From: Somniosus microcephalus
Taxonomy: Eukaryota
Reading direction: 5' to 3'
Length of the DNA: 64,000 bases
Assembly (NCBI GenBank): GCA_052327205.1
Contig: CM126206.1
Location: forward strand, 160,828,001 to 160,892,000
Part shown: positions 22,930 to 60,419 of the stretch, in pieces
Layout of the letters: every line of letters begins with the position of its first letter
How positions within the stretch are numbered: position 1 is the first letter of the stretch
Translations under genes and position numbers: made by a program
Notes under the pieces: model-generated
Databases searched by the model: none
What the model saw: the letters and a program-made list of their open reading frames with translations, nothing else
What the model was told of the DNA's origin: nothing

Positions 22930-23224
22930 AAAGTCTTTCTTCACAGAAACTGCATTTTAGGTTTCGATTTCCCCAAAAGCTGTTTGTGCCACAGAGTCCA
23001 AGCTTTTAAAATCTTGCAGGCTTTCTGCCACGAGGTGCGGACGCCATCTTTGGGTACCCTTTTTTAAAATGTCCATGCAGGGTCCCTGTTATTAATAACT
23101 AGCTGGCGTGCCCGGCGGTGCCGAGGGTTTTTTGAGGGCATGTTGTTATGAGAAAAGTAGAAATAATTTTTATCTATATATATCAACGAGTCTGTCCGTC
23201 TGTCCATCTGTCTGTCTGTCTGTG

Positions 23225-24770
23225 TGGGGGAAGGAGAGAGAGAGAGTGGGAAGGAGAGAGAGAGAGAGAGGGAAGGAGAGAGAGAGAGAGAGAGGGGGAA
23301 GGAGAGAGAGAAAGAGGGGGGAAGGAGAGAGAGAGGGGGGGAAGGAGAGAGAGAGTGGNNNNNNNNNNNNNNNNNNNNNNNNNNNNNNNNNNNNNNNNNN
23401 NNNNNNNNNNNNNNNNNNNNNNNNNNNNNNNNNNNNNNNNNNNNNNNNNNNNNNNNNNNNNNNNNNNNNNNNNNNNNNNNNNNNNNNNNNNNNNNNNNNN
23501 NNNNNNNNNNNNNNNNNNNNNNNNNNNNNNNNNNNNNNNNNNNNNNNNNNNNNNNNNNNNNNNNNNNNNNNNNNNNNNNNNNNNNNNNNNNNNNNNNNNN
23601 NNNNNNNNNNNNNNNNNNNNNNNNNNNNNNNNNNNNNNNNNNNNNNNNNNNNNNNNNNNNNNNNNNNNNNNNNNNNNNNNNNNNNNNNNNNNNNNNNNNN
23701 NNNNNNNNNNNNNNNNNNNNNNNNNNNNNNAGAGGGTGGNNNNNNNNNNNNNNNNNNNNNNNNNNNNNNNNNNNNNNNNNNNNNNNNNNNNNNNNNNNNN
23801 NNNNNNNNNNNNNNNNNNNNNNNNNNNNNNNNNNNNNNNNNNNNNNNNNNNNNNNNNNNNNNNNNNNNNNNNNNNNNNNNNNNNNNNNNNNNNNNNNNNN
23901 NNNNGAGAGAGAGAGGGGGAAGGAGAGTGAGAGAGAGAGGGGGGAAGGAGAGAGAGAGAGAGAGGGGGAAGGAGAGAGAGAGAGAGAGGGGGGAAGGAGA
24001 GTGAGAGAGAGAGGGGGGAAGGAGAGAGAGAGGGGGGAAGGAGAGAGAGAGAGAGAGAGAGGGAAGGAGAGAGAGAGAGAGAGATGGGGAAGGAGAGAGA
24101 GAGAGAGAGGGGGGAAGGAGAGAGAGAGAGGGGGGAAGGNNNNNNNNNNNNNNNNNNNNNNNNNNNNNNNNNNNNNNNNNNNNNNNNNNNNNNNNNNNNN
24201 NNNNNNNNNNNNNNNNNNNNNNNNNNNNNNNNNNNNNNNNNNNNNNNNNNNNNNNNNNNNNNNNNNNNNNNNNNNNNNNNNNNNNNNNNNNNNNNNNNNN
24301 NNNNNNNNNNNNNNNNNNNNNNNNNNNNNNNNNNNNNNNNNNNNNNNNNNNNNNGAGGGGGGGGGAAGGAGAGAGAGAGCCGCCGCTCCTCCGGTCGATG
24401 TGTTGCGGGCCGATCCCTGATGAGCGCCCGATCCGCTGAGCTGGAGCCCTTGCCGTTGCTCCCCTGCTCGCTGTCTCTCGGGCCGTATGGTTCTCTGTTT
24501 TCCCGCACAGCCAGCCAGAGGGAAGAAAAACAAAAGAGATGAAGAGAGACGCGACTGAGTGAACGATCTAATTTAAAGCATCCTCTCCCCCGCTAAAAGG
24601 TGAGAGCCGGAGGGAGATTTTGCGGGTGAAGAAGGGCGGACGCCATTTAATTTCCCACCTGGGGAAGGGCTTGGAAAATTGAGCCCGGCCGCGGTGGCCG
24701 TGCGAGGCCTAGCGCTTCAGGCCCGGCCGGGCTCTCGGGCCGCGACTTACCTCAGCTGAGCTCCCGCTTC

Positions 24771-28300: not shown

Positions 28301-29490
28301 ACCGGTCTTGCTTTAAAAAACTTGGGAATTGCCGCATCTTCCACTTTTATTGAGGCGGTGATGCCTTTCAAGGTTCCTAGTTTCTCTTGAAACACTTCCT
28401 TGGCGTTGGCCAAGATGTCTTTTAATCGTTCAGGTATGACGCCATCATCATTTTTTTCCTTACTGGTCACCGTCAGTTCCTGAATGGAGTGCCAGTCTAA
28501 ACGTATTTTCCTGATCCATTCACGTCCCAACAGTGGTGGACCACCATCTTGTAGAACGTATAAATACAACTTCTGTATTTCCTTGCCGTTGTATACAACA
28601 GGCACCCTTATTTTTCCTTTGGGGTTTACTTTCTGCCCCGTATATGTTTTCAAGATAATGGATGTGTCTTTTAAAGGTATATGCGGAAATAGCCGCTCGT
28701 AATCCCGTCGATTTATGACGGTCAGAGCTGATCCTGTATCTAGCTCCATTTTAACTGGGGATCCTGCTATTGTGAGGGTAACCCAAATGGTCTGGTAATC
28801 TTCTTTGGCAATTACATTATGTAATTTGAGAGAGCTTAGTCTCTTGTTTCCGGAGTCGCTATCGCTCTTCTGGTCTTCAGAGCTACTGTCCGTCATCATT
28901 TGTACCTTTCTGTGCTTTTCCTTATTGATTTTTTTTCTGTTAGTGGATTTTTTGTTTCCAGATCGGCATACACGTGTAATGTGTCCCATCTTTCCGCATT
29001 GCCTGCATGCTTTGTCCTTGAACCAGCAGTCCCTCTGGTCATGGGTGAATCTGCCGCAGCGATAACATCTCTTGAAACCCCGTGTCATTTCATGGGTGCC
29101 GAAGTCCTGTGGCTTTTGCTGTATCTCTGCAGCTCCTCTTGCACTGAAAGCCTTGTCCAGTGTCAAATCTTTCTCAGAAAGTAGCCTTTTTTGTGTTCCT
29201 TCACTTAGGAGACCACAGACGAATTTGTCTCATAGAGAATCTGCCAGTCCTGCCCCGAATTGGCAGTGTAGGGTATCAACAATCTCCTTAAAATTCTTGT
29301 CCATCGGTTCGGCTGGAGTGATTAAGTTTCGTAACAGCTTGTATGTCTTTGCGCCCATTAGATTTAGAAGTACTGAAGCTTTTTTTTCATCTTCTATTCC
29401 ATTTGCGGTGCAATATACCTCCACTCTTTCCACATATGTGGTCCAATCCTCTATCTTATCAAAAGCATCAATATTGCCAGACTTAGGCAT
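25393..29490 (-). pseudogene. gag-pol of Gypsy 1 (2 CCHC knuckles, protease LDTG, RT YLDD, RNase H, integrase)
   Basis: ORFs 29230..29490, 27826..29166 and 25482..27620. It has premature stops, two gag deletions relative to Gypsy 4, and an insertion in RT. Confidence 0.95.
27668..27928 (-). mobile_element. Short non-LTR retroelement (Rex/Babar-like 3' end) inserted in Gypsy 1 RT
   Basis: Interrupts 'YQYN^RLVFGVASAP'. Has a (TAA)n tail next to CAACTTTATTGTCATTGCAC. Confidence 0.75.
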
Positions 29491-32037
29491 CCTAGAAAAA
29501 AAATGGCGCTTCCCGCGCTTTTCATTTCTGCAGAAAAGATATGGCGCTTCCCGCGCTTCCCCGCCGCTGCTGCCGATGACAACGCTGTTTCCCGCGGTTT
29601 CCGTTCTTTTTATTCATTTATTTACAGTTGGAGACTCGTTCTCGCCGGACTCTCTCTCTAGGTCTGAACGCCGACCTGCTTGCAGCGCCGGCCATCTCCC
29701 GAGTGCTCCCTCCCCATCTGTTACTGCTTGCCTCCACTTTTGCTGCTTGGCGTAGCTACAGAGCCAGCCGCTGGAGCCCCAGCCCGACGCCCAGGAAGGA
29801 TTATTGCAGTACCTGCCACCAGCTTGGCTAGCTGGTGAAACCACAGCTTTTTCTTTTTCTTGATTTCTTTTCAACTTTGGACGCCAGAGGAATCGATGTC
29901 CTTGAGGTGCTGCCGAATTGCAGGTAAGTCCGTTTCCAATTCGTCGCCACTGTTGTGTCCTTGTGTTGAAAGAGACACTGAAGGCAGGAGTTGGTTTCAC
30001 AGGTGTTTACTAAACAAAGTCTGGAGGGGAACTAACTGATACAACACAATATACAGCCTTATATATCCCGAGTGGCCATTACCGGCATTACAGTACACAT
30101 GGGGCTCTTAAAGGCACATACACTACAGCCACCACTCACCTCAGCTCAGCTCCCGCTCGGCAGTTTGAAGGCTTAGGCCCTGCCCACAAATGCCATGAAA
30201 CGCCCCCCAATTGGTCAACCATCACATCACTCAACGCTAATGAGCGGTAGGATTGGTCAACCGCTAATGAGCGGATTATGTCTGTTTTTTAAACGTTTTT
30301 TGCATACTGTCCGAACAATTTTTGTCTGACCAAAAAGTAAATATGCCTATGAGACTCCCCTAATCATAAGCTTTCTTTTGATATAACATATGTGTAGTTA
30401 CGCTCTATAACTTTTGAGTGATGCCCCGGACAGACAGACAGACAGACAGACAGACACCACGATCCTTTTATATATATAGATAACCTTTGGGGAAATGTGG
30501 AAGTTTTGCGAATCTTACAATAGACCAGGTGGCAACACTAGTCTAACTCATGAGGGCCCCACCAAGCTGTGTGTTGCTGCGCTGGTGCTGGGTGCACTGA
30601 GTTCTGATGACGCTGCTCCCTCAGAGGCTTCAGGTTCCTCTGAGGAGTCGTCTGGCTCTTCGTCTTGGATCGTGGGGAGGGAGGCGCTCAATGGTCCTGT
30701 GGGAGAGTAAAGGCATGATTTAGACATCTGATATTGATGTAGCAGACACATCCTTTTCTGCAGATGATACAAAGCGATTCTCTATGAACATCGTATGCCA
30801 TTGCAGTTAATCACTAAATGTCAATGAGAGGAATGAAACTCTATTATGTCACCAGCTTCCTCTAGTGTGCCCATCTCTCCATCGCCCACTTCCAGATCCT
30901 CGCCACCTCCAACAATGCTGTGTCCAGCTTCCTCAGCACTTGTCAAGGTTACAAGGGTTGGCGTACCTCCTCCAGTCATTGCTCTCTCCCTCTTATTGTG
31001 GGCTATCTTTTCCTGCAAGGAGGGACACAAGCGGTGTTTCAGCCACAGTGATGGAGTGAGTGTGAAGAATCCCTACCATAAAAGCTTTGAGGGAGACAAA
31101 GATGGGGTAAGGTGCCAAGAGGAAGCTAGCTCCCTGTGCATTGTTAGTTGTTGTCACTACATGACAGTGAGAGCGAGTCTAAGGGGTGCATAGGCAGGAT
31201 GCTGAAGTGATTCAGTACAGAGACAGAGATGGATAGGTAAGGGTGCAAGGGAAGTAAGGGTAAGGTGGGAAGTGAAGGAGGAGACTTACAACACAGAGTG
31301 CTGGTGATGAGAAGAGAAGGGAAGCAAATTGAAGGTAAGTGTGATGTGATCTCACTTTTGATGCTCGCACAAGATCATTAAATTGTTTCCCGCACTGAAT
31401 CCATGAGCGTGAATAAATGGACCTTGCGCTGACCTCCTCAGCAATGCGCAGCCAGACAGCCTTGGTCTGCTGAGGAGGCTTCCTCTGGCTATCCGGAGGG
31501 AAGAGAATCTCCCTGCGCCCTCTTACAGCATCAACAAGAGTCTTATGTTCATTAGTAAATAGACATTCTTATTATGAACACAGCTATCTTTTGCTAGACA
31601 CTTTTATTGAGCACATGTGGACTAGGTACAGTATCTGTAGAGGCTTCCATCTTGACTGCTGCCTTGTGGGTAGCCTAGCCTCATGGGTTATGTAGTCTTA
31701 ATATATATACAGCTGGGTAGTGTAGTCTTAATACATACAGCTATATACAGCTCTACGGCTCCACCTAGTGTCCACAATAGAATGACATGTTATTGATCGT
31801 TACATCCCCCTTTCTTTGAGGTTTAACAAAATCAATATCAATCAACTTTCAAGAAAACAATAAAGATAATATCAGTAACACTTTTGCTAGTGCTCTATAA
31901 ACATAAACATTTTCAAAACAGTCAACACATTTTCAAACCTTTACATTGTACTCAAAGATTAAGTCTATCAGGCTCTTTTACTTCACGTGTGGATCTTCTC
32001 AACATGGGTAAGTCTGATGTGTCTTCATGAGATTGTT

Positions 32038-33809
32038 CTAGTGGTGAATGACAAGATGCAGTTGCGGCATTGTCATCAATCTGCTCTTGTATAGATCGAG
32101 GTCTCCTTGCGATCTTTGCTTGGAGAGGGTTTCAGTGTTTCCTTCACTCTTCATGCCATAACTCTCAATGTAATCAATGCACTCTCGAAAAACTGCTGGC
32201 AGCTGGATCCCATCATACAGCATAGTCCTCTCAGCAGCCTCGGCTAATGGAACACCAAAGATTGGCCTGAGGGAAGAAGGAGTATCCACCGGAACTGCTT
32301 CCTGCTCTGGTGCAGGCTTCTTCTTTTTCTTTTTCTCTTTCCACTGCTTAACAACATCTGCTGCGGTTATATCTTTGGACTTTTTCTCCTTGTGTTTTTC
32401 CTCTTTGTGCTTTTCTTCCTTTGGCTTCTCTTTGACCGTAAAGTCTTTTTCTTTCTTCTTGGAGAAACTAGGCTTTTTGAAGGCATGGATGCCCTTTGGC
32501 CTTTTCATCCTTGATGGGCTCTCTGCTTCATCACCTGAGTCATCTGGTCTGCTTATGGCACAGTTTATACGGTAGACTCTCTTGACCAGTTCTAAGTCTT
32601 CACAAGCTTTGTCACCTAGTATCGAATCAAGTCTTTCAGCCACAACAGAAAACATGAGATGATGCACTTTGTCTTTGACTGTCACTTTAAGTCTGCATAC
32701 ACCTAAGCTATCTATTTTCTGCCCATTATAGTCCTTCAGTAGTACTGACTTTTTCTGTATTTTGGGCTTTTCTTTCACATTGTTAATGTCACTCATACTG
32801 ATTAAGTTTGCTTTTGCCCCAGTGTCCAGTTTCAATGTAACAAATGCTCCATTTATCTGCAGTGGGATCATCCATTTGTCCTCTTTTACTGCATTAACTT
32901 TATGTTCAGCATTGTCTATTTCTGAGGGCTGCACATTTTCTGTATCTTTTTTGATATCGTCACATGACACCATTCCTACAAAAAATGTCTCACTTAAAGC
33001 AGTGTCCTCAATCACATTAACTCGTTGCCCTTTCGTCGTTTTTACTTTTGAAAAGCATTGTTTGGCAAAGTGATTCTTTCCATTACACTTTGTGCACATT
33101 TTTCCAAACGCTGGGCATTGTCTTAACTGGTGTTTGTAACCACAGCGTTTACAATTAAAAATTTCATCCTCCGATTGCTTTTCATTTCTGTTCTGCCCAC
33201 GTTTCTTCCCCTTGTAGGACACAGCACCGACAGCAGCATTATCACTCATTACATTTGCATCATTATTGATTTCACTGAAAGTCTTCGCGTGATTTCGAGC
33301 TAGCTCGCTGGCTTGGCATATTTTCACCGCATTTTCCAAATTTAGTTCGGTTTCTCTCAACAGACGTTCCCTGACTTTTTTATCATGAATACCAAACACA
33401 ATCTGGTCACGAATCATGGATGCTTTGAGCTCAGAGAAATTACATGTCTGTGCTTTCAGTTTCAGATCAGTTATAAAGCTATCAAAAGTCTCATTTTGTT
33501 GCTGTGTCCGAGAACGGTAGGTGTATCTTTCATACGTCTCATTCTTTTTGGGAGAGCAATGTGCATCAAATTTTTTTAGCACATCTTCTAATTTTCCTCT
33601 GTTCTCCTCTAGATTAAATACAAATGTATTAAATACCTCTATCGCCTGTGGGCCTACAACCGTAAGCAGCAACGCTATCTTCCTTGCGTCTGGCTTCGTA
33701 CCGAATCCGATGGCTGCAATGTAGAGTTCGAATTGTTGTTTAAAGTCTGCCAATTGTAGTCGGTTTTTTCTGTGAGATTCAAATGCTCTGGTGGCTTCAA
33801 ATTCTCCAT
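32038..33809 (-). CDS. Gag-protease-RALBP1 chimeric ORF (one 1-nt frameshift about 20 codons after the likely ATG at 33809)
   Basis: 571 stop-free codons (32038..33753) encode Gag with Cys/His knuckles, protease 'LDTGAKANLI', then the RALBP1 sequence. The upstream 'MENLKPPEHLNL..NWQT' is in another frame. Confidence 0.8.
32140..32538 (-). pseudogene. RALBP1: Captured fragment of RalA-binding protein 1 (RLIP76): basic N-terminal region and start of the RhoGAP domain
   Basis: SGDEAESPSRMKRPKGIHAFKKPSFSKKKEKDF..KEKPKEEKHK..AADVVKQWKEKKKKKKP..PIFGVPL..ERTMLYDGIQLPAVFRECIDYIESYGMKSEG closely matches vertebrate RALBP1 as I recall it (SGDEAESPSKMKRSKGIHVFKKPSFSKKKEKDF...YDGIRLPAVFRECIDYVEKYGMKCEG). 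Confidence 0.93.
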
Positions 33810-34829
33810 GTCGCTTTTCACAATTTTCAGCAGATCTTCACCATCCTGGTACCATCTTATGTTCATTAATAACTTGACATTCTTATTATGAACACAGCTA
33901 GCTTTTGCTAGACACTTTTACTGAGCACATGTGGACTAGGTACAGTATCTGTAGAGGCTTCCATCTTGACTGCTGCCTTGTGGGTAGCCTAGCCTCATGG
34001 GTTATGTAGTCTTAATAATATATATACAGCTGGGTAGTGTAGTCTTAATACATACAGCTATATACAGCTCTACGGCTCCACCTAGTGTCCACTATAGAAT
34101 GACATGTTATTGATCGTTACAAAGAGCATGGAGGAACTCATCATTAAAGCATGGAGCTGCCTTGCCTCTGGAAGAACTCATTTTGGTTGGAGCACTATCA
34201 CTGAGTATCAGAATGCAGAAGAGAAAGGCTGAGGCTGAATGGGAGCTTTAAAACCAGCTGCTATTATGACGTCATCAGAGGCGGCCAGCCGACCCGATCA
34301 CACTCATTGGACCAGCCAGCGTGCTCCAATGAAGTCAACAAGCTGATTTAATTAAAATCGGACATCAGCAGTTAATCCCGTCGGAAGCGGCTCTGGAACC
34401 TGCCCACCACGCAACCTGACTCCAAGCTGCTTCAGGAATAAAAAGCACGGCCCTATCATGTAAAGGAGCAGGCAGCACAAATTTTACATGATGCCTGCAC
34501 TACTTTGAACGGGCGCAGTCAAATGGGCTGGCCCTTGACACCGCCCGTTTTTGGGCCATATCCAATTCCTAGGCCTTAGTAGCATACTGCTCACAGCAAG
34601 TCCAGCTATCAAATCAAAGTACATTTCCAAAACAAGCGAGAAATGAGGCTTGATACCTAACAAGTTAAACATTGTAATTCTGACATCATACATTTAAAAA
34701 AATGGCATCTTTCACAAAACAATCCTTAAAGCTGTGTTTAATCCTTGATGAGCCCTGGACGAGTGTTCAGGTGCATTCTGAATTCTCTTTGGTTGGCAGC
34801 CCTAAAAGAAAAAATACTTTAAAAAAAAA

Positions 34830-37730: not shown

Positions 37731-40700
37731 TGTACGGATAACCGTAGCTGTCGTAAAGACCGCAGGGTTTGATTGACAGCTGGTTGACGGCTGATGTCAT
37801 ATCCGGGGGCGGGATCCGACGCCATCTTGGTCATGCTTCAGACACTGTACTGGGAGACACAGAGTCAGGACTGAATAAAATGGTTCTCCTCAACAACTGC
37901 TTGTGAGACTCATAATTACGTTACTAAGGTAACATTACATGGCACCAGGATTTATAGAACTCACGATAAGGACATAATGGAAGGAACAAAACCTTTGGCT
38001 AAATGTGGATGAAAATTGGCGTGTCTTCAAGCAACGCTTTCTTCTATACCTCACAGCGATTGACGCTTCGACTAGCTCTGGAACACAAAGTAGCTTTGTT
38101 GCTAACAGTGGCTGGCTCGCAGGCAATCGAGCTGTTTAATACATTTACGTTTGCAGCCGAAGATGATAAAAATGATCTGGACAAGGTGATAGAATGGTTC
38201 GATGAATACTGCACTCCAAAAAAGAGTGAAACGTACGAGAGATTCGTGTTTCGCTCCCGCATGCAAAAGCAAGGAGAATCCTTTGATGTTTTTTTGACGG
38301 ACTTGAAAATAACAGCACAAACATGCAACTTTAAGGACCTGAAGGAATTGATGATACGCAATCAAGTTGTTTTTGGAATACTCGACAAGAAGGTGAAGGA
38401 GAGAATGCTTAGAGATAATGACCTAAATTTGGATGCAGCAGTGAAAATTTGTCAGGCTAGTGAACTCTCAGCCATGCACACAAAAACTTTCGAAGGGAGC
38501 GCCCTGGGGCTGATAAACCTGCCAGTGGATGTGGTACACAAAAGAGACACAAGAGGGCCCACGGAGTTCAAGATAATGACGCCTTACGAATGCAGACAGT
38601 GCGGTAATAAACATGTGGCCAGACAGTGTCCTGCTTATGGGAAGAACTGCGCAAAATGTAAAGGCAGGAATCACTTTGCCAAGATGTGTTTTTTGGAAGA
38701 GAAAACTGAAGGTAAAAAGACAGTGCATGCTATTGTGACTGAAGAGACAGGGGCAGAGACTTTGTTGGTAGGAATGGTGCAAAATGAGTCAAAACAGGGC
38801 AAAAATGCTAAGGAAGTGCACTCTGTAGGACCAAAGACTGAAGTTTGGATAGTTCCCTTGTTGGTAAATGGCACCATTGTTCCCTTTAAGCAAGATACAG
38901 GTGCTAAGGCAAACCTCATAAGTTGGAGTGATGCACGGAATCTCAAAGTGCGACCTAAAATACTGAATAAGACAATGTCTTTGAAGGCATACAATGGACA
39001 AAGCATTGAAACAAAAGGAACGTGTAGGCTGAATGTTAAGGTAAAAAATCACATTCACCCTTTGACCTTTGTTATAGTGCCTGAAGGACATGAGTCACTG
39101 TTAGGGGATAAGGCCTGTGTGGATTTGGGCCTGGTAAAATGAATCTATACTATCAATGAACAGAACTGTGTGCAGAGTGCCCCCCAAGATAGTACAAATC
39201 TGACTCTTGAGACTATAGCACACAAATATGCAGATGTCTTTCAGGGTTTTGGAGCACTGCCCCTTACATACTCCATCAAACTGAGAGAGGATGCACAACC
39301 TGTGATTCACGCACCCAGGAGAGTTCCAGTGGCTCTCCGTGAAAAACTGAGGAAAGAGCTAGACTGCATGGAGGGACTAGCTGTCATAAAGAAGATTGAG
39401 GAACCGACTGACTGGGTAAATTCCATGGTCTGCGTCAATTCAAAGAAAACTGATAAATTGTGTGTCTGCATGGATCCCAAGGACCTTAACGCCAATATCA
39501 AAAGCGAGCACTACCAAATTCCAAAGAGAGAGGAAATAGTCAGTGAAATGACAGAGGCGAAAGTCTTCTCCAAAATGGACGCCTCGCATGGTTTCTGGCA
39601 GTTGAAACTTGATGAAGAAAGTGCTAAGCTGTGCACTTTCAACACCCCGTTTGGTCGATACTCCTACTAGCGTCTGCCCTTTGGTATTAGCTCTGCCCCA
39701 GAAATCTTTCACAGAGCAATGGAGCAAATCATCGAGGGCCTGGAGGGAGTGCGGGCGTATGTGGATGATCTGGTAGTATGGGGCTCCACTCAGGGGGAGC
39801 ACGACACCAGACTGGAGAAAACACTTCAGAGAATACAGCAGTATGGACTCAAACTAAATAAAGGCAAATGTCAGTTCAGTGTCAATGAAATCACATTCCT
39901 AGCAGACAAGATCTCTGCAGAGGGGATTCAGCCAGACAAGTCAAAGGTAAAGGCTATAAATGACATGGAGAAACCAAAGGACAAGAAAGGGGTTCAGCGG
40001 GCCCTTGGCATGGTTAACTACCTAGGAAAATTCATTCCAAATCTAGCAGTGAAAACTGTTCATCTGAGAAAACTGCTGCACCAAGAGACAGAGTTCCAAT
40101 GTGGACATAAACATGAGAGAGAATGGAAGGGGCTGCTACACATTCTAGCAAGTGAACCCCTACTGAAGTTCTTCTGCCCTAAAAAGAGGACAAAAGTGTC
40201 CACAGATGCCTCTAAGAATGGATTAAGGTCTGTCCTTCTACAGGAAGATGAAGGAGAATGGCGACCAGTGGCGTATGCGTCACGCTCCATGATGGCTACA
40301 GAGTGCCGGTACGCACAAATCGAGAAGGAGTGCCTTGGCTTGGCATTTGGGTGTGAAAAATTTCAAACCTACATCTATGGACTTCCCAAGGTTATCCTAG
40401 AAATGGACCATGAGCCACTGCTAGGGATCGCAAAGAAGAATCTGTGTGACATGTCACCACGGATACAATGCCTGATGATGAGACTTCAACGTTACGATTT
40501 TGAGCTAACATATGTGCCAGGGACACAAATGTTCATTGCAGACACACTATCCAAGGCTGCGCCGTACGCCACACAAAACAGTGAAACAGAAGAGGATGTG
40601 GCTTTTCATGTGGATATGATCTACGCAGCATTGCCCGCCACACAGGAACAACTATCAGTGATAGTCACAGAGACATCAAAGGATCCAGTCCTGAGTAAAG

Positions 40701-50000: not shown

Positions 50001-51362
50001 CTCTGCCTCGACAGCTGGGCGAATTGCATATGGTACCGGTCTCGCTTTGAAAAACTTGGGAACTACATTCTCTTCTATTTTTATCGAGGCGCTTATGCCT
50101 TTAAGCGTGCCCAGTTCTTGTTGAAATACCTCTTTGGCGTTAGCTAAGATTGTTGACAATCGTCCAGGAGTGACGTCTTCATCTTTTTTACCGTCCACCA
50201 TCATTGCATGAATGGAATGCCAATCTAAGTTTATCTTCCTGATCCATTCCCGTCCCAATAACGGTGGTCCACCATTTGGCAGTATGTAGAGATACAATTT
50301 CCGTATTTTCTTGCCATTGTATTCGACAGGCACCCTTATTTTTCCTCTGGGGTATACCTTTTGCCCCGTATACATCCTCAAGATGATGGATGTCTCTCTC
50401 AAGGGTATGTGTGAAAATAGCCGCTCGTAGTCTCGTCGATTCATGGCGGTTAGCGCTGATCCTGTATCCAATTCCACTTTAACTTGGGACCCTGCTATCG
50501 TGAGAGTGACCCAAATGGTTCGGTGATCCTCTTTTGTGATTACATTGTGAAGTTTGAGACAGCTTAGTCTCCTGTTTCCGGATTCACTATCGCTCATCTG
50601 GTCTTTGGAACTACTGTCCGTCATCTTTTGTACTTTCTTGTACGGTTCCTTAGTAGCCTTTTTGTTGTCGCTGGTCTTCTTCCCAGACCTACAAACTCGT
50701 GCAATGTGTCCAATCTTCCCGCATTGTCTGCATATTTTGTCTTTGGACCAGCAGTCCTTCTGGTCATGGTTAGTTCTGCCGCAGCGATAACATTTTGCAA
50801 ATCCCCGTGTCATTTCGTGGGTGCCGTATTCCTGTGGTTTTTGTTGAATTTCTGCAGCTCCCCTGGCTGCTGCTTCATACGATACTGCCACGCTGAAAGC
50901 CTTATCTAGCGTCAGCTCTTTTTCTGCGAGTAACTTCTTCTGTGTTCCTTCACTCAGGAGTCCACAGACAAATTTGTCCCGTAGGGTATCTGCCAGTCCT
51001 GCTCCGAACTGGCAGTGCTTTGATAGCTTGCGTAGTTCCGTAAGATACTCAGCATTGCTCTCATCTTTGTGCTGAGTTCTCCTGTGGAATTTAAATCATT
51101 CTGCTATCAACAGCGGTGCAGGGTTTAAGTGCTCCTGTAGAACAGCAACAATTTCGTTAAAACTCTTCGCCTTCGGTTTGGCTGGAGTAATCAGATCCCG
51201 CAATAGGCCGTACGTTCTAGCGCCCATTAAGTTTAGCAATATTGATGCCTTTTTCCCCTCCGCTATTTCATTTGCCTCGAAATATACCTCGACTCTTTCC
51301 ACATACGTGGTCCAGTCCTCTAATGTGTTATCAAAAGCAGTGATACAGCCAGTCTTCGGCAT
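47039..51362 (-). pseudogene. gag-pol of Gypsy 4
   Basis: ORFs 51096..51362, 49257..50891 and 47039..48739, with premature stops and a SINE insertion in RNase H. Confidence 0.95.
48731..49090 (-). mobile_element. Full-length HE1-type V-SINE
   Basis: GGGCAGCACGGTGGCATAGTGG (A box), GGTTCGAATCC (B box), V-domain TGTGTGGAGTTTGCACATTCTCCCCGTG...GGGTTTCCTCCGGGTGCTCCGGTTTCCTCCCAC, a (TTCTGTGA)n tail and an ATTT TSD. Confidence 0.93.
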
Positions 51363-55095: not shown

Positions 55096-58000
55096 TCTAT
55101 ATATACAAAAGGATATGTCTCTCTGTCTGTCTCTCTGTCTGTCTCTCTGTCTGTCTCTCTTTCTGTCTCTCTGGCCGGCTATACAATCAAAAGTTATAGA
55201 GCGTACCTACACATATGTTATATCAAAAGAAAGCTCATCATTAGGGGACTCTTGTAGGCGTATTTACTTTTTGCTCCGACAAAAATTGTGCCGACGGTAT
55301 CCAAAAAATGTTCAAAATTCCTCTCATTATCCGCTCATTTGCATCGAGTGGGGGCGGGTTCATTGTGTGTGCGGGCGGGCCATCCTACAGTTGAATAACG
55401 TGATGATTGACCAATCGTACAGTTCAGTGACCTGACGGTTGACCAATGCGTGTGTGGGCGGGCCTTATCATTCTGAACCGAGGTGAGTCGCCGCCATCTT
55501 GATTCCAAACTTTTCATTTCTTTTTCCCACTTTCTGCGTGTTTCTTTTCAAATCTACATTTCCAGCAAAAAAAAAGTTGCTTTTAAAACACAAATTGTTT
55601 TTAAAAAAAGTTAATTAATTTGTAAATCTTTTCTCTAACCTCTATAATTCTCCTACCTTTCACCGTTTTTCCAGGCCCGGGGCCTAGGCTTCTCCAACTG
55701 CCAGCAGCGCAACTCTAGTCCCAGGCTCCTGGCCTAGACAGAGACAAACACTGGCAGAGGGCAGAGGGTGTGCTGCCTCAGATCCATTCCCGGGGTCAGT
55801 AGGTGGGGAGGCTTCATAAGCAACTGGGGTAGGTCGCAAGCCCCGAATAATAATCTGAAGATCCTGTGTTTGCAGCTGAGGAAATTTCTTCTGCTGACAG
55901 CCCCAGGTTAACGGCAGCCATCTTTGTCAAGGAGTGTGAAAAGTTTCAGTGCGACGCCATTTTGATTCAGTGTGTAACAGAGTGCATGCGCAGCCATCTT
56001 AGTACAGGAACATAGAGTGGGTGGGGCTTCTGTGCTCCAAATCTGGTCCTGGTGACCGAGACAGACAATCGACTGTGTGGGCGGGGCCTAATCTTTCCAG
56101 CTGAAAAGCAAGCGGTGGCCATTGTTTGTGATACAACACACTGAGAGGTGAGGACCCCTTTTTTAATAAAAAGATTGGTGAGGTTGTAAAGTGTATGTTA
56201 TAGAAAGATTTACCAAAAATGTTTTATAAGTACTTTAAGTTTCATGTTTCCCCACCCCTTGCTCCCCCCGCTCCCTTTCCCCCCTCCCTTTTATCCCCCT
56301 CTACCTTTATCCCCCTTCCCCCCTCCCTTCCCCCCTCCCTTTCCCCCTTCCCTTTCCCCCCTCCTTCCCCCACAACCTCTTCCTCCCCCAACACCCCCTT
56401 CCCCCCCACCCTTTCCACCCTTCCCCCCACACCCCCACCCCCTTCCCCCCCACACCCCCACCCCCTTCCACCCACCCTTCCCCCCACCCCCCTTCCCCCC
56501 TTCCCCCCCACTTCACCCCCACACCTCCTTCCCCCCCACACACCCCCACACCCCCTTCCCCCCTTCCCCCCAACACCCCCTTCCCCCCCCACACCCCCAC
56601 ACCCCCTTCCCCCCCACACACCCCCACACCCCCTTCCCCCCACACCCCCTCCCACCTCCCCTCCCCCACCACCCCTTCCCCCACCCACCCATTTCTCCCC
56701 CACCCACCCCTTTCTCCCACCCCACCCACCCACCCACCCACCCCCCCCACCCACCCCTCCTCCCCCCCCACCCCACCCCACCCTTCTCCCCCCCCACCCA
56801 CCCCACCCTTCTCCCCCCCACCCACTCACCCTTCTCCCCCCCACCCAACCCACCCTTCTCCCCCCCACCCACCCCACCCTTCTCCCCCCCACCCACCCCA
56901 CCCTTCACCCCCCCACCCACCCCACCCTTCTCCCCCCCACCCACCCCACCCTTCTCCCCCCCACCCACCCCACCCTTCTCCCCCCCACCAACCCCACCCT
57001 TCTAGCCCCCACCCACCCCAATCTTCTCCCCCCCACCCACCCCACTCTTCTCCCCCACCCACACATTTCTCCCCCACACCTTGCTCCCCCACCCCTTGCT
57101 CCCCCACCTCTTTCCCCTTTCTCTCCTCCCCTCTCTGTCTCTCTCTCTCCCTCCCTCTGTCTCTGTCTCCCTCTCTCTCACTCTCATTCCCTCTCTCCNN
57201 NNNNNNNNNNNNNNNNNNNNNNNNNNNNNNNNNNNNNNNNNNNNNNNNNNNNNNNNNNNNNNNNNNNNNNNNNNNNNNNNNNNNNNNNNNNNNNNNNNNN
57301 NNNNNNNNNNNNNNNNNNNNNNNNNNNNNNNNNNNNNNNNNNTCTCTTCCCCCCCTGTCACTCTCTCTCTTCCCCCCCATCGCTCTCTCTGTTCCCCCTG
57401 TCGCTCTCTCCCCACCGTCGCTCTCTCTCTTCCCCCCCAGTCGCTCTATCTCTTCCCCCCAGTCGCTCTCACTCTTCCCCCCCAGTCGCTCACTCTCTTC
57501 CCCCGAGTCGCTCTCTCTCTTCCCCCCCAGTCGCTCTCTCTCTTCCCCCCGTCGCTCTCTCTCTTCCCCCCAAGTCGCTCGTTCTCTCTCTTCCCCTCCA
57601 GTCGCTCTCTCTCTCTCTTCCCCCCAGTCGCTCTCTCTCTCTCTTCCCCCCAGTCGCTCTCTCTCTCTCTTCCCCCCAGTCGCTCTCTCTCTCTCTTCCC
57701 CCCATCTCTCTCTCTCTCTCTTCCCCCCAGTTGCTCTCTCTCTCTCTTTCCCCCCAGTCGCTCTCTCTCTCTCTTCCCCCCGTCACTCTCTCTCTTCCCC
57801 CTGTCGCTCTCTCTCCCCCCCGTCGCGCTCTCTCTTCCCCCCCAGTCGCTCTCTCTCTTCCCCCCCAGTCGCTCTCTCTCTTCCCCCCAGTCGCTCTCTC
57901 TCTTCCCCCCCAGTCGCTTTCTCTCTTCCCCCCCAGTCGCTCTCTCTCTTCCCCCCCAGTCGCTCTCTCTCTTCCCCCCAGTCGCTCGCTCTCTCTCTTC

Positions 58001-60360
58001 CCCTCCAGTCGCTCTCTCTCTCTCTTCCCCCCCAGTTGCTCTCTCTCTCTCTTCCCCCCATCTCTCTCTCTCTCTCTCTTCCCCCCAGTCGCTCTCTCTC
58101 TCTCTTCCCCCCAGTCGCTCTCTCTCTCTCTTCCCCCGTCACTCTCTCTCTTTCCCCGTCACTCTCTCTCCCCCCCCGTCGCGCTCTCTCTTCCCCCCCA
58201 GTCGCTCTCTCTCTTCCCCCCCGTCGCTCTCTCTCTTCCCCCCCAGTCGCTCTCTCTCTTCCCCCCCAGTCGCTCTCTCTCTTCCCCCCAGTCACTCTCT
58301 CTCTTCCCCCTGTCGCTCTCTCTCCCCCCCGTCGCGCTCTCTCTTCCCCCCCAGTCGCTCTCTCTCTTCCCCCCCAGTCGCTCTCTCTCTTCCCCCCAAG
58401 TCGCTCGTTCTCTCTCTTCCCCCCAGTCGCTCTCTCTCTCTCTTTCCCCCAGTCGCTCTCTCTCTCTCTTCCCCCCAGTCGCTCTCTCTCTCTCTTCCCC
58501 CCAGTCGCTCTCTCTCTCTCTTTCCCCCATCTCTCTCTCTCTCTCTTCCCCCCAGTCGCTCTCTCTCTCTCTTTCCCCCCAGTCGCTCTCTCTCTCTCTT
58601 CCCCCCGTCACTCTCTCTCTTCCCCCTGCCGCTCTCTCTCCCCCCCCGTCGCGCTCTCTCTTCCCCCCCAGTCGCTCTCTCTCTTCCCCCCCAGTCGCTC
58701 TCTCTCTTCCCCCCCAGTCGCTCTCTCTCTTCCCCCCCAGTCGCTCTCTCTCTTCCCCCCCAGTCGCTCTCTCTCTTCCCCCCAGTCGCTCGCTCTCTCT
58801 CTTCCCCTCCAGTCGCTCTCTCTCTCTCTTCCCCCCAGTCGCTCTCTCTCTCTCTTCCCCCCATCTCTCTCTCTCTCTCTCTTCCCCCCAGTCGCTCTCT
58901 CTCTCTCTTTCCCCCCAGTTGCTCTCTCTCTCTCTTCCCCGTCACTCTCTCTCTTCCCCCGTCACTCTCTCTCCCCCCCGTCGCGCTCTCTCTTCCCCCC
59001 CAGTCGCTCTCTCTCTTCCCCCCCAGTCGCTCTCTCTCTTCCCCCCCAGTCGCTCTCTCTCTTCCCCCCCAGTCGCTCTCTCTCTTCCCCCCCAGTCGCT
59101 CTCTCTCTTCCCCCCCAGTCGCTCTCTCTCTTCCCCCCAGTCGCTCTCTCTCTTCCCCCCCAGTCGCTCTCTCTCTTCCCCCCCAGTCGCTCTCTCTCTT
59201 CCCCCCCTAGTCGCTCTCTCTCTTCCCCCCCAGTCGCTCTCTCTCTTACCCCCCAGTCGCTCTCTCTCTTCCCCCCAGTCGCTCTCTCTCTTCCCCCCCA
59301 GTCGCTCTCTCTCTTCCCCCCCAGTCGCTCTCTCTTCCCCCCAGTCGCTCCCTCTCTTCCCCCCAGTCGCTCTCTCTCTTCCCCCCAGTCGCTCTCTCTC
59401 TTCCCCCCAGTCGCTCTCTCTTCCCCCCCAGTCGCTCTCTCTCTTCCCCCCAGTCGCTCTCTCTCTTCCCCCCCAGTCGCTCTCTCTCTTCCCCCCCAGT
59501 CGCTCTCTCTCTTCCCCCCAGTCGCTCTCTCTCTTCCCCCCCTAGTCGCTCTCTCTCTTCCCCCCCAGTCGCTCTCTCTCTTACCCCCCAGTCGCTCTCT
59601 CTCTTCCCCCCCAGTCGCTCTCTCTCTTCCCCCCAGTCGCTCGCTCTCTCTCTTCCCCCCAGTCGCTCGCTCTCTCTCTTCCCCTCCAGTCGCTCTCTCT
59701 CTCTCTTCCCCCCCCAGTCGCTCTCTCTCTCTCTTCCCCCATCTCTCTCTCTCTCTCTCTTCCCCCCAGTCGCTCTCTCTCTCTCTTTCCCCCCAGTCGC
59801 TCTCTCTCTCTCTTCCCCCGTCACTCTCTCTCTTCCCCCGTCGCTCTCTCTCCCCCCCGTCGCGCTCTCTCTTCCCCCCCAGTCGCTCTCTCTCTTCCCC
59901 CCAGTCGCTCTCTCTCTTCCCCCCCAGTCGCTCTCTCCCTTCCCCCCCAGTCGCTCTCTCTCTTCCCCCCCAGTCGCTCTCTCTCTTCCCCCCAGTCGCT
60001 CTCTCTCTTCCCCCCCAGTCGCTCTCTCTCTTCCCCCCAGTCGCTCTCCCTCTTCCCCCCCAGTCGCTCTCTCTCTTCCCCCCCAGTCGCTCTCTCTCTT
60101 CCCCCCCTAGTCGCTCTCTCTCTTCCCCCCCAGTCGCTCTCTCTCTTACCCCCCAGTCGCTCTCTCTCTTCCCCCCAGTCGCTCACTCTCTTCCCCCCCA
60201 GTCGCTCTCTCTCTTCCCCCCCAGTCGCTCTCTCTTCCCCCCAGTCGCTCCCTCTCTTCCCCCCAGTCACTCTCTCTCTTCCCCTCAGTCGCTCTCGCTC
60301 TCTCTTCCACCAACAACATGCCCTCAAATGACCCTCGGCACCGCCGGGCACTTTAGCTAG
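55096..60360 (+). mobile_element. Non-autonomous Helitron 2
   Basis: A|TCTATATATACAAAAGGAT ... CCCTCGGCACCGCCGGG-CACTTTAG-CTAG|T. The first 230 bp or so and the last 50 bp or so are homologous to Helitron 1. Confidence 0.9.
56245..60305. repeat. C-rich array followed by an approximately 3-kb (CCCCCAGTCGCTCTCTCTCTT)n minisatellite, inside Helitron 2
   Basis: Directly visible, with one N gap. Confidence 0.97.
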
Positions 60361-60419
60361 TTATTATATATGGGAAACCAGATATGCAGTACATGATACA
60401 AGGTAGTAACACATTAGAG

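Follow-up and report, generated by a model that had tools for sequence, protein, structure and literature searches.

Thousands of copies of a non-autonomous Gypsy retrotransposon family carry a fragment of the host gene RALBP1 in Somniosus microcephalus

The 64,000-nucleotide stretch of Somniosus microcephalus DNA analyzed here (contig CM126206.1, positions 160,828,001 to 160,892,000; hereafter the window) contains on its minus strand a complete long terminal repeat (LTR) element of 2,581 nt (2.58 kb; 34121 to 31541), in which a fragment of the host gene RALBP1 is joined in frame to gag and the protease. Our results identify this element as a decayed member of a family of non-autonomous Gypsy elements. 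The family probably captured RALBP1 mRNA by template switching, has probably moved since then with enzymes supplied by an autonomous parent, and probably carries its RALBP1 sequence as a neutral passenger. The mechanism is a known one; the scale of thousands of copies and the signal of recombination with the helper are notable.

A preliminary description of the window, made from the letters alone, had assigned the insert to RALBP1. The 133 insert codons had a single match in the PDB, 2mbg (E 5.6e-19). Of 349 homologues 120 were listed; those that bear a name are nearly all RALBP1, and the others are unnamed or hypothetical. The highest identities among the homologues listed were to sharks and rays (86-88%), and no annotated fusion protein was found among these 120. 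RALBP1 is a single-copy gene in the 6.4-Gb genome (contig C7), and 390 of 399 aligned bases of the insert are identical to the interior of its exon 3, which confirms the assignment; the exon numbers used here are those of the human gene. One 15-nt EEKHK repeat of host exon 3 is missing from the insert. The exon-3 piece (399 nt, 32141..32539, minus strand, in frame with gag-protease) corresponds to residues ~93-229 in primate numbering and terminates three codons short of the arginine-finger position, given as Arg232 in the available text of PMC8124665. Ending before this residue, the fragment would lack catalytic GTPase-activating protein (GAP) activity, which supports the earlier prediction. 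Both the polybasic region and the segment 180-192 that PMC8124665 describes lie within the fragment.

The left junction, between protease and RALBP1, has 2,429 exact matches in the genome and the exon-exon junction has 2,452, while the reversed-pattern controls gave none; by a count made by eye, some 84 of the 100 places listed first for the exon-exon junction recur in the left-junction list. The family comprises at least 2,429 copies, or by arithmetic about 2,900 copies and about 7.5 Mb. Our sample was the first 100 places in the contig C1 listing, chosen without regard to similarity beyond the 22-mer; the internal region is complete in 84 of them, and 78 include both outer ends. Junction 2 is present in 95 of these position-ordered copies and junction 3 (into the pol tail) in 97. 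Perfect 5-bp target-site duplications (TSDs) were found in 63 of the 78 copies, 61 of them different, and 11 more copies have a TSD with one mismatch. The junction search proposed in the preliminary description has thus borne out a mobile chimeric family. Thousands of loci share the same junctions at different TSDs, and four public runs have depth in all 30 bins, which refutes both a misassembly and a single capture that took place after insertion. The LTRs of the 78 copies end in TG...CA (43), TG...GA (33) or TG...TA (2); GA-ended copies can have perfect TSDs, and GA ends occur in parents too.

A K>R change and a 15-nt deletion are common to all 74 copies compared, which shows that the chimeric family goes back to a single founder. 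The median divergence between the two LTRs of a copy is 1.5% in the sample, compared with 2.3% in the window copy, so that the special youth suggested for the latter is not upheld. Even 1.5% need not be recent, given one shark rate of 7e-10 per site per generation (PMC10587355).

At the protease-junction site, 5,379 genomic matches continue otherwise, a few of them being mutated chimeras; nearly all of the first 100 represent one parental sequence. In one of 20 parents fetched, a single frame of 1,369 codons runs without interruption through protease, reverse transcriptase (RT), RNase H and integrase and ends in the same pol tail. This domain order is that of Ty3/Gypsy elements, with a single gag-pol frame, and the LTR-to-LTR length of 4.65 kb leaves no space for env. 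From the single frame and the Gag motifs we take the parent to resemble the Mag (K02A2.6-like) clade. The autonomous relative and the chimera have LTRs and cis signals in common, and the chimeric gag-protease clusters with one parent sub-lineage within an unresolved polytomy. In the domain-family search, RT, RNase H and integrase gave no family match in the 599-codon frame of the window copy, as had been described. The parent likely supplies these enzymes to the chimeric family in trans, and its discovery substantiates the mobilization in trans that had been proposed.

The 46 nt following the insert (32140-32095), previously read as native pol tail in another frame, derive from the last exon of RALBP1, as a second captured piece, and are absent from all 20 parents fetched; the tail itself, the C-terminal end after integrase, is indeed in another frame but occupies 31952..32094 (minus strand). 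Including shared junction bases, the last-exon piece measures 55 nt (32093..32147, minus strand), is identical to the host at 55 of 55 positions, terminates at the host stop codon and lies out of frame in the fusion. The two RALBP1 pieces sit 38.5 kb apart in the host gene, and both are exonic, in sense and in mRNA order. All three junctions show microhomology: CTC or CTCAG (3-5 nt), depending on the parent allele, between protease and RALBP1; GTGAAGG (7 nt) between exon 3 and the last exon; and CT (2 nt) between RALBP1 and the pol tail. At the first of these sites the parents have CTCAG (10 of 20), CTCGG (9 of 20, including the two closest) or CTCAA (1 of 20). Between its junctions the chimera lacks about 2.5 kb of parent pol; the host piece replaces the internal open reading frame (ORF) and does not interrupt it.

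The junction microhomologies point to template switching on mRNA, and since two sense exonic pieces stand in mRNA order without intron sequence, the RALBP1 pieces were likely captured from an mRNA template; the second piece is the best evidence of this. It counts against such a template that the insert holds no true splice junction, so that its RNA nature has to be deduced; exact splice junctions are present only in a second family described below, while the chimeric insert joins two exons without intron sequence. The absence of a splice junction would also suit a capture at the DNA level, in which a break in a parent copy was gap-repaired from the RALBP1 locus with template jumps and the product was then retrotransposed. 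Such an event would have required a 38.5-kb jump that ended in the last coding exon, kept the orientation and took up no intron sequence, and we consider it very improbable; of the two routes offered in the preliminary description, template switching is the one supported. One chimeric copy (L041:2713-6072) does lie ~26 kb upstream of RALBP1 exon 3 (G000:C7) in the same orientation, as might be expected of a local capture; a copy within 30 kb has, by arithmetic, a chance of about 3% at this copy number. That copy is an ordinary member of the family with extra damage, being interrupted by a 745-nt insertion. It has the derived family change and sits in the main polytomy, not basally (in a tree where rows L094 and L117 are misaligned long branches), and was rejected as the founder.

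For template switching on mRNA we propose the following course. Parent RNA and RALBP1 mRNA would have been packaged together; minus-strand synthesis would have passed from the pol tail to the region of the RALBP1 stop codon across a 2-nt overlap, moved on to exon 3 at a 7-nt overlap, leaving out ~1.2 kb of mRNA, and rejoined the parent directly after the protease through an overlap of 3-5 nt. The junction sequences are observed, while the switching process is what they suggest. The single founder copy then gave rise to a burst of insertions with distinct TSDs. LTR and gag-protease alleles were repeatedly swapped with the parent, a pattern seen in the copies, presumably with parent RNA in the course of reverse transcription, and the inserted copies of the transcribed family have decayed neutrally.

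RALBP1 sequence also occurs in a second LTR family (seven loci; L042-L045, L195-L201, G000), which contains precisely spliced RALBP1 exons 2-3, with exon 4 in three of seven loci, and is unlike the chimeric family outside RALBP1. Downstream of RALBP1 its members are mosaics of other host mRNA pieces with long open frames, including PGK (PF00162, E 2e-30) and a VWA domain; other pieces without Pfam match we take to be Tudor-domain-like and DCN1-like. Judged from these sequences, RALBP1 has been captured by two LTR families, and because the second carries precisely spliced exons 2-3(-4), RALBP1 mRNA does enter LTR elements here. Four sites distinguish host exon 3 (L038:6042-6455) from both capturing families alike. 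At the one nonsynonymous site among them, other sharks have the captured residue, which suggests that the RALBP1 copies keep an older host allele. Faster host divergence inside the captured stretch, as expected of an escape from silencing, was not seen (~4/370 inside compared with ~5/240 outside), in a comparison of low power gauged against the second family.

The four shared alleles could also reflect an origin in two steps, in which a longer mRNA piece reaching from exon 3 to the last exon, or a piece from another chimera, was later shortened at the 7-nt microhomology; a deletion there would yield the identical junction. However, the alleles are explicable by host-side change, given the residue of the other sharks, and the second family lacks both the repeats present in the chimeric family and the last-exon piece. 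Sequence searches found no longer capture intermediate surviving in the genome: the only occurrence of the sequence just 5' of the last-exon piece is in the host, and the Ral-binding domain likewise occurs once. A two-step origin is rather unlikely.

Since its origin, the family appears to have exchanged sequence with its parent. Between chimeric copies the divergence is 7.6% in the LTR, 3.9% in gag-protease and 1.8% in the insert, and the within-copy LTR difference (1.7%) is near the value for the insert. Variants found in at least five copies number 118 in the 1,271 nt of gag-protease and seven in the 446 nt of the insert. Among gag-protease variants, 77 of 153 shared ones also occur in parents, compared with 29 of 479 singletons (81 copies, 42 of them similarity-picked, and 17 of 20 parents). 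Linkage falls with distance (mean r2 from 0.37 to 0.04), and 853 of 1,176 comparisons fail the four-gamete test. Because the start and end types agree between the two LTRs of a copy (73/78 and 68/78, respectively), the exchange is placed before or during reverse transcription. These patterns, read from the aligned copies, show that LTRs and gag-protease repeatedly swapped alleles with the parent and the RALBP1 core did not; repeated co-packaging with parent RNA would be the simplest account.

The ratio of nonsynonymous to synonymous substitution rates (dN/dS) was determined across the family. Singleton changes are neutral in all coding segments (1.0-1.2 in 100 copies; 1.03 in the RALBP1 piece). 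For variants present in at least three copies, with CpG sites excluded, dN/dS in the protease was 0.26 (p 0.004), that in gag 0.83 and that in the RALBP1 piece 0.98 (S4, N12), the last falling to 0.76 when CpG sites were included. The purifying signal in the protease is largely explained by alleles imported from the parent. No constraint on the RALBP1 piece was found in 39, 81 or 100 copies, at low power. The frame is open from the gag start through the RALBP1 piece in 12 of the 100 copies, broken in 72 and without its start in two; 14 were unassessable. The constraint that the long frame had been taken to suggest is not supported: dN/dS is about 1 in the RALBP1 piece, and in 74 of 86 assessable copies the frame is broken or lacks its start. 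The RALBP1 piece is likely a neutral passenger, and selection for the fusion protein is improbable.

Several observations weigh against a purely neutral insert. The seven commonest variants of the RALBP1 piece (at least five copies, CpG included) give a dN/dS of 0.25 (S4, N3; p 0.07); with only 16 shared non-CpG variants, selection on the insert would be hard to detect; and an amplified frame-broken sub-lineage was not found, the four shared frameshifts tested being A-run slips without linked variants. Since shared gag-protease variants unseen in 17 parents give a dN/dS of 0.55 (p 0.011), the Gag-protease of the chimera may matter in cis. An alternative with the same origin would accommodate these points: an open frame through RALBP1 could benefit the element, with selection acting on the source copies only, through better packaging of its own RNA, escape from RNA decay (the stop lying near the 3' LTR) or membrane or RNA binding by the polybasic region. 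In its favor, the fusion keeps the reading frame, which is uninterrupted from the gag start to the end of the exon-3 piece in 12 of 86 assessable copies; no broken sub-lineage has been amplified, the gag-protease variants shared only among chimeras show the reduced dN/dS, and the piece contains the polybasic region and the 180-192 segment of PMC8124665 (as far as its available text goes). Against this, joining in frame is expected one time in three anyway, the shared non-CpG variants of the piece are at 0.98, the sole fixed element-side substitution in the piece (K>R) is nonsynonymous, and parent-imported alleles can explain the purifying signal in gag-protease. A beneficial open frame is therefore unlikely, and neutral passage remains the preferred interpretation.

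The chimeric family is transcribed. Two raw RNA runs with the species label of several DNA data sets (X23 and X24) cover all 30 bins of 31850-33050, so that the RNA check proposed earlier gave coverage of the whole insert; depths over the insert are ~100-370 in X23 and 80-230 in X24, computed from 24% and 31% of the runs, respectively. Depth is continuous across all junction bins in both runs (a statement about bin depth, not about single junction-spanning reads). About 10 of 11 first mates in X23 are on the plus strand (about 10:1), which, assuming a library of the usual type, means sense RNA; in X24 the strands are more mixed. The loose read ends listed at the two outer junctions are parent-like, and none of the contig pieces listed has at least 31 letters on both sides of a junction. 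Because the host 15-nt repeat is in no listed row and the host allele in none of 40 rows listed, most insert RNA reads are likely element-derived. In all, four public runs have depth in 30 of 30 bins; in a run under a second organism label the insert depth is ~0.3 of the protease depth, which agrees with 2,429/(2,429+5,379).

In defective transducing retroviruses of the gag-onc type, host coding sequence stands in frame behind gag, pol is lost, and the virus depends on a helper with which it recombines. The RALBP1 family is alike in all four respects. It differs in being a Gypsy family whose parent frame is free of env, and in carrying a non-catalytic host piece without sign of selection, and it is not known to cause a phenotype; the gag-onc parallel drawn in the preliminary description holds for layout and helper dependence only.

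LTR-mediated retroposition in animals, including its mechanism and capture by vertebrate LTR elements, has already been published (Tan et al., 2016; PMC5131818). In the available sections of that paper a partial mRNA replaces part of an internal ORF, the template is switched more than twice at points of microsimilarity, both LTRs are retained, and co-transcription and secondary non-autonomous retroposition occur, as in the family described here; five of seven young retrocopies in zebrafish and four of ten in chicken are of this kind. Those cases occupy one to few insertion sites, in contrast to ~2,900 copies here, and the RALBP1 family further differs from them in that two pieces of one mRNA are joined by a skip and that there is population-level evidence of helper exchange. 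Maize Bs1, as far as presented in PMC5131818 and PMC7264820, has one to five copies, three donor genes and a proposed functional chimeric gene, whereas the RALBP1 family has thousands of copies and a host piece without sign of selection. Transduction-like extra ORFs occur in one or a few copies according to the accessible part of a review (PMC7264820). Host fragments within intact LTR elements are likewise described in the available text of PMC2774510 for the maize genome, with 425 elements from at least 189 captures, compared with one capture leading to ~2,900 copies here. A published description of such a RALBP1-carrying family was not found among the titles and abstract openings listed by the literature searches.

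Template-switch capture of mRNA, known from cases of one to few copies, can found a family of thousands of copies in a vertebrate. A non-recombining host core within a recombining element is a natural marker, which makes selection on source copies testable and would provide rare genomic evidence of co-packaging of a defective element with its helper. It is quite improbable that the family acts back on its host as a large, transcribed second source of RALBP1, in the manner of gag-onc viruses but from a non-infectious vertebrate retrotransposon. If it did, several hundred open-frame copies would make Gag-protease-RALBP1(93-229), and a GAP-dead polybasic fragment would compete with RALBP1 partners; alternatively, small RNAs regulating the single host gene would arise from RNA of both strands, which is 98% identical to exon 3. 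The ~2,900 near-identical copies of exon 3 will confound annotation, expression and variant calls of RALBP1 in these animals.

The architecture of the window copy agrees with the complete LTR element and perfect AAGAG TSD described before, as borne out by the LTR alignment and the motifs. The TSD lies at 34122..34126 on the 5' LTR side and at 31536..31540 on the 3' LTR side (both plus strand); all other features are on the minus strand. The 5' LTR (TG...GA, 267 nt, 33855..34121) and the 3' LTR (264 nt, 31541..31804) are 96.6% alike with gaps counted, with six mismatches in 264 aligned positions (the 2.3% given above). In the sub-lineage of this copy the LTR terminates in GA, not CA (31541-31542, 33855-33856). 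Next to the 5' LTR lies a primer-binding-site-like motif, TGGTACCAGGA (33844..33854), which was also found in parents and may match tRNA-Leu; the primer-binding-site-like sequence TGGTACCAGG is confirmed in this copy. Gag (32866..33809) starts at the ATG at 33809, has two CCHC-type knuckles identified by eye and is followed by the aspartyl protease (32614..32865) with its LDTG motif; the family matches of the protease are PF13975 and PF13650, PF13975 being just under the cut-off (E 6.8e-6). The polypurine tract is at 31805..31817. Gag, aspartyl protease and insert share a stop-to-stop frame of 599 codons, which stops sooner than in most copies. Because a frameshift near 33740 puts the gag ATG at 33809 out of this frame, it is no usable gene in the window copy.

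Other Gypsy-like gag-protease regions in the window (38087-39193, 50157-51260 and 28498-29067) show 49%, 22% and 27% protein identity, respectively. They were rejected as helpers, the best having 49% protein and 65-77% DNA identity. The window copy is inserted at the start of a Myb/SANT-like frame (31212-31540; PF13873), which we take to belong to a Harbinger-type DNA transposon. Low-complexity, strongly skewed stretches at 23000-24600 and 56200-60400 of the window yield long spurious open frames.

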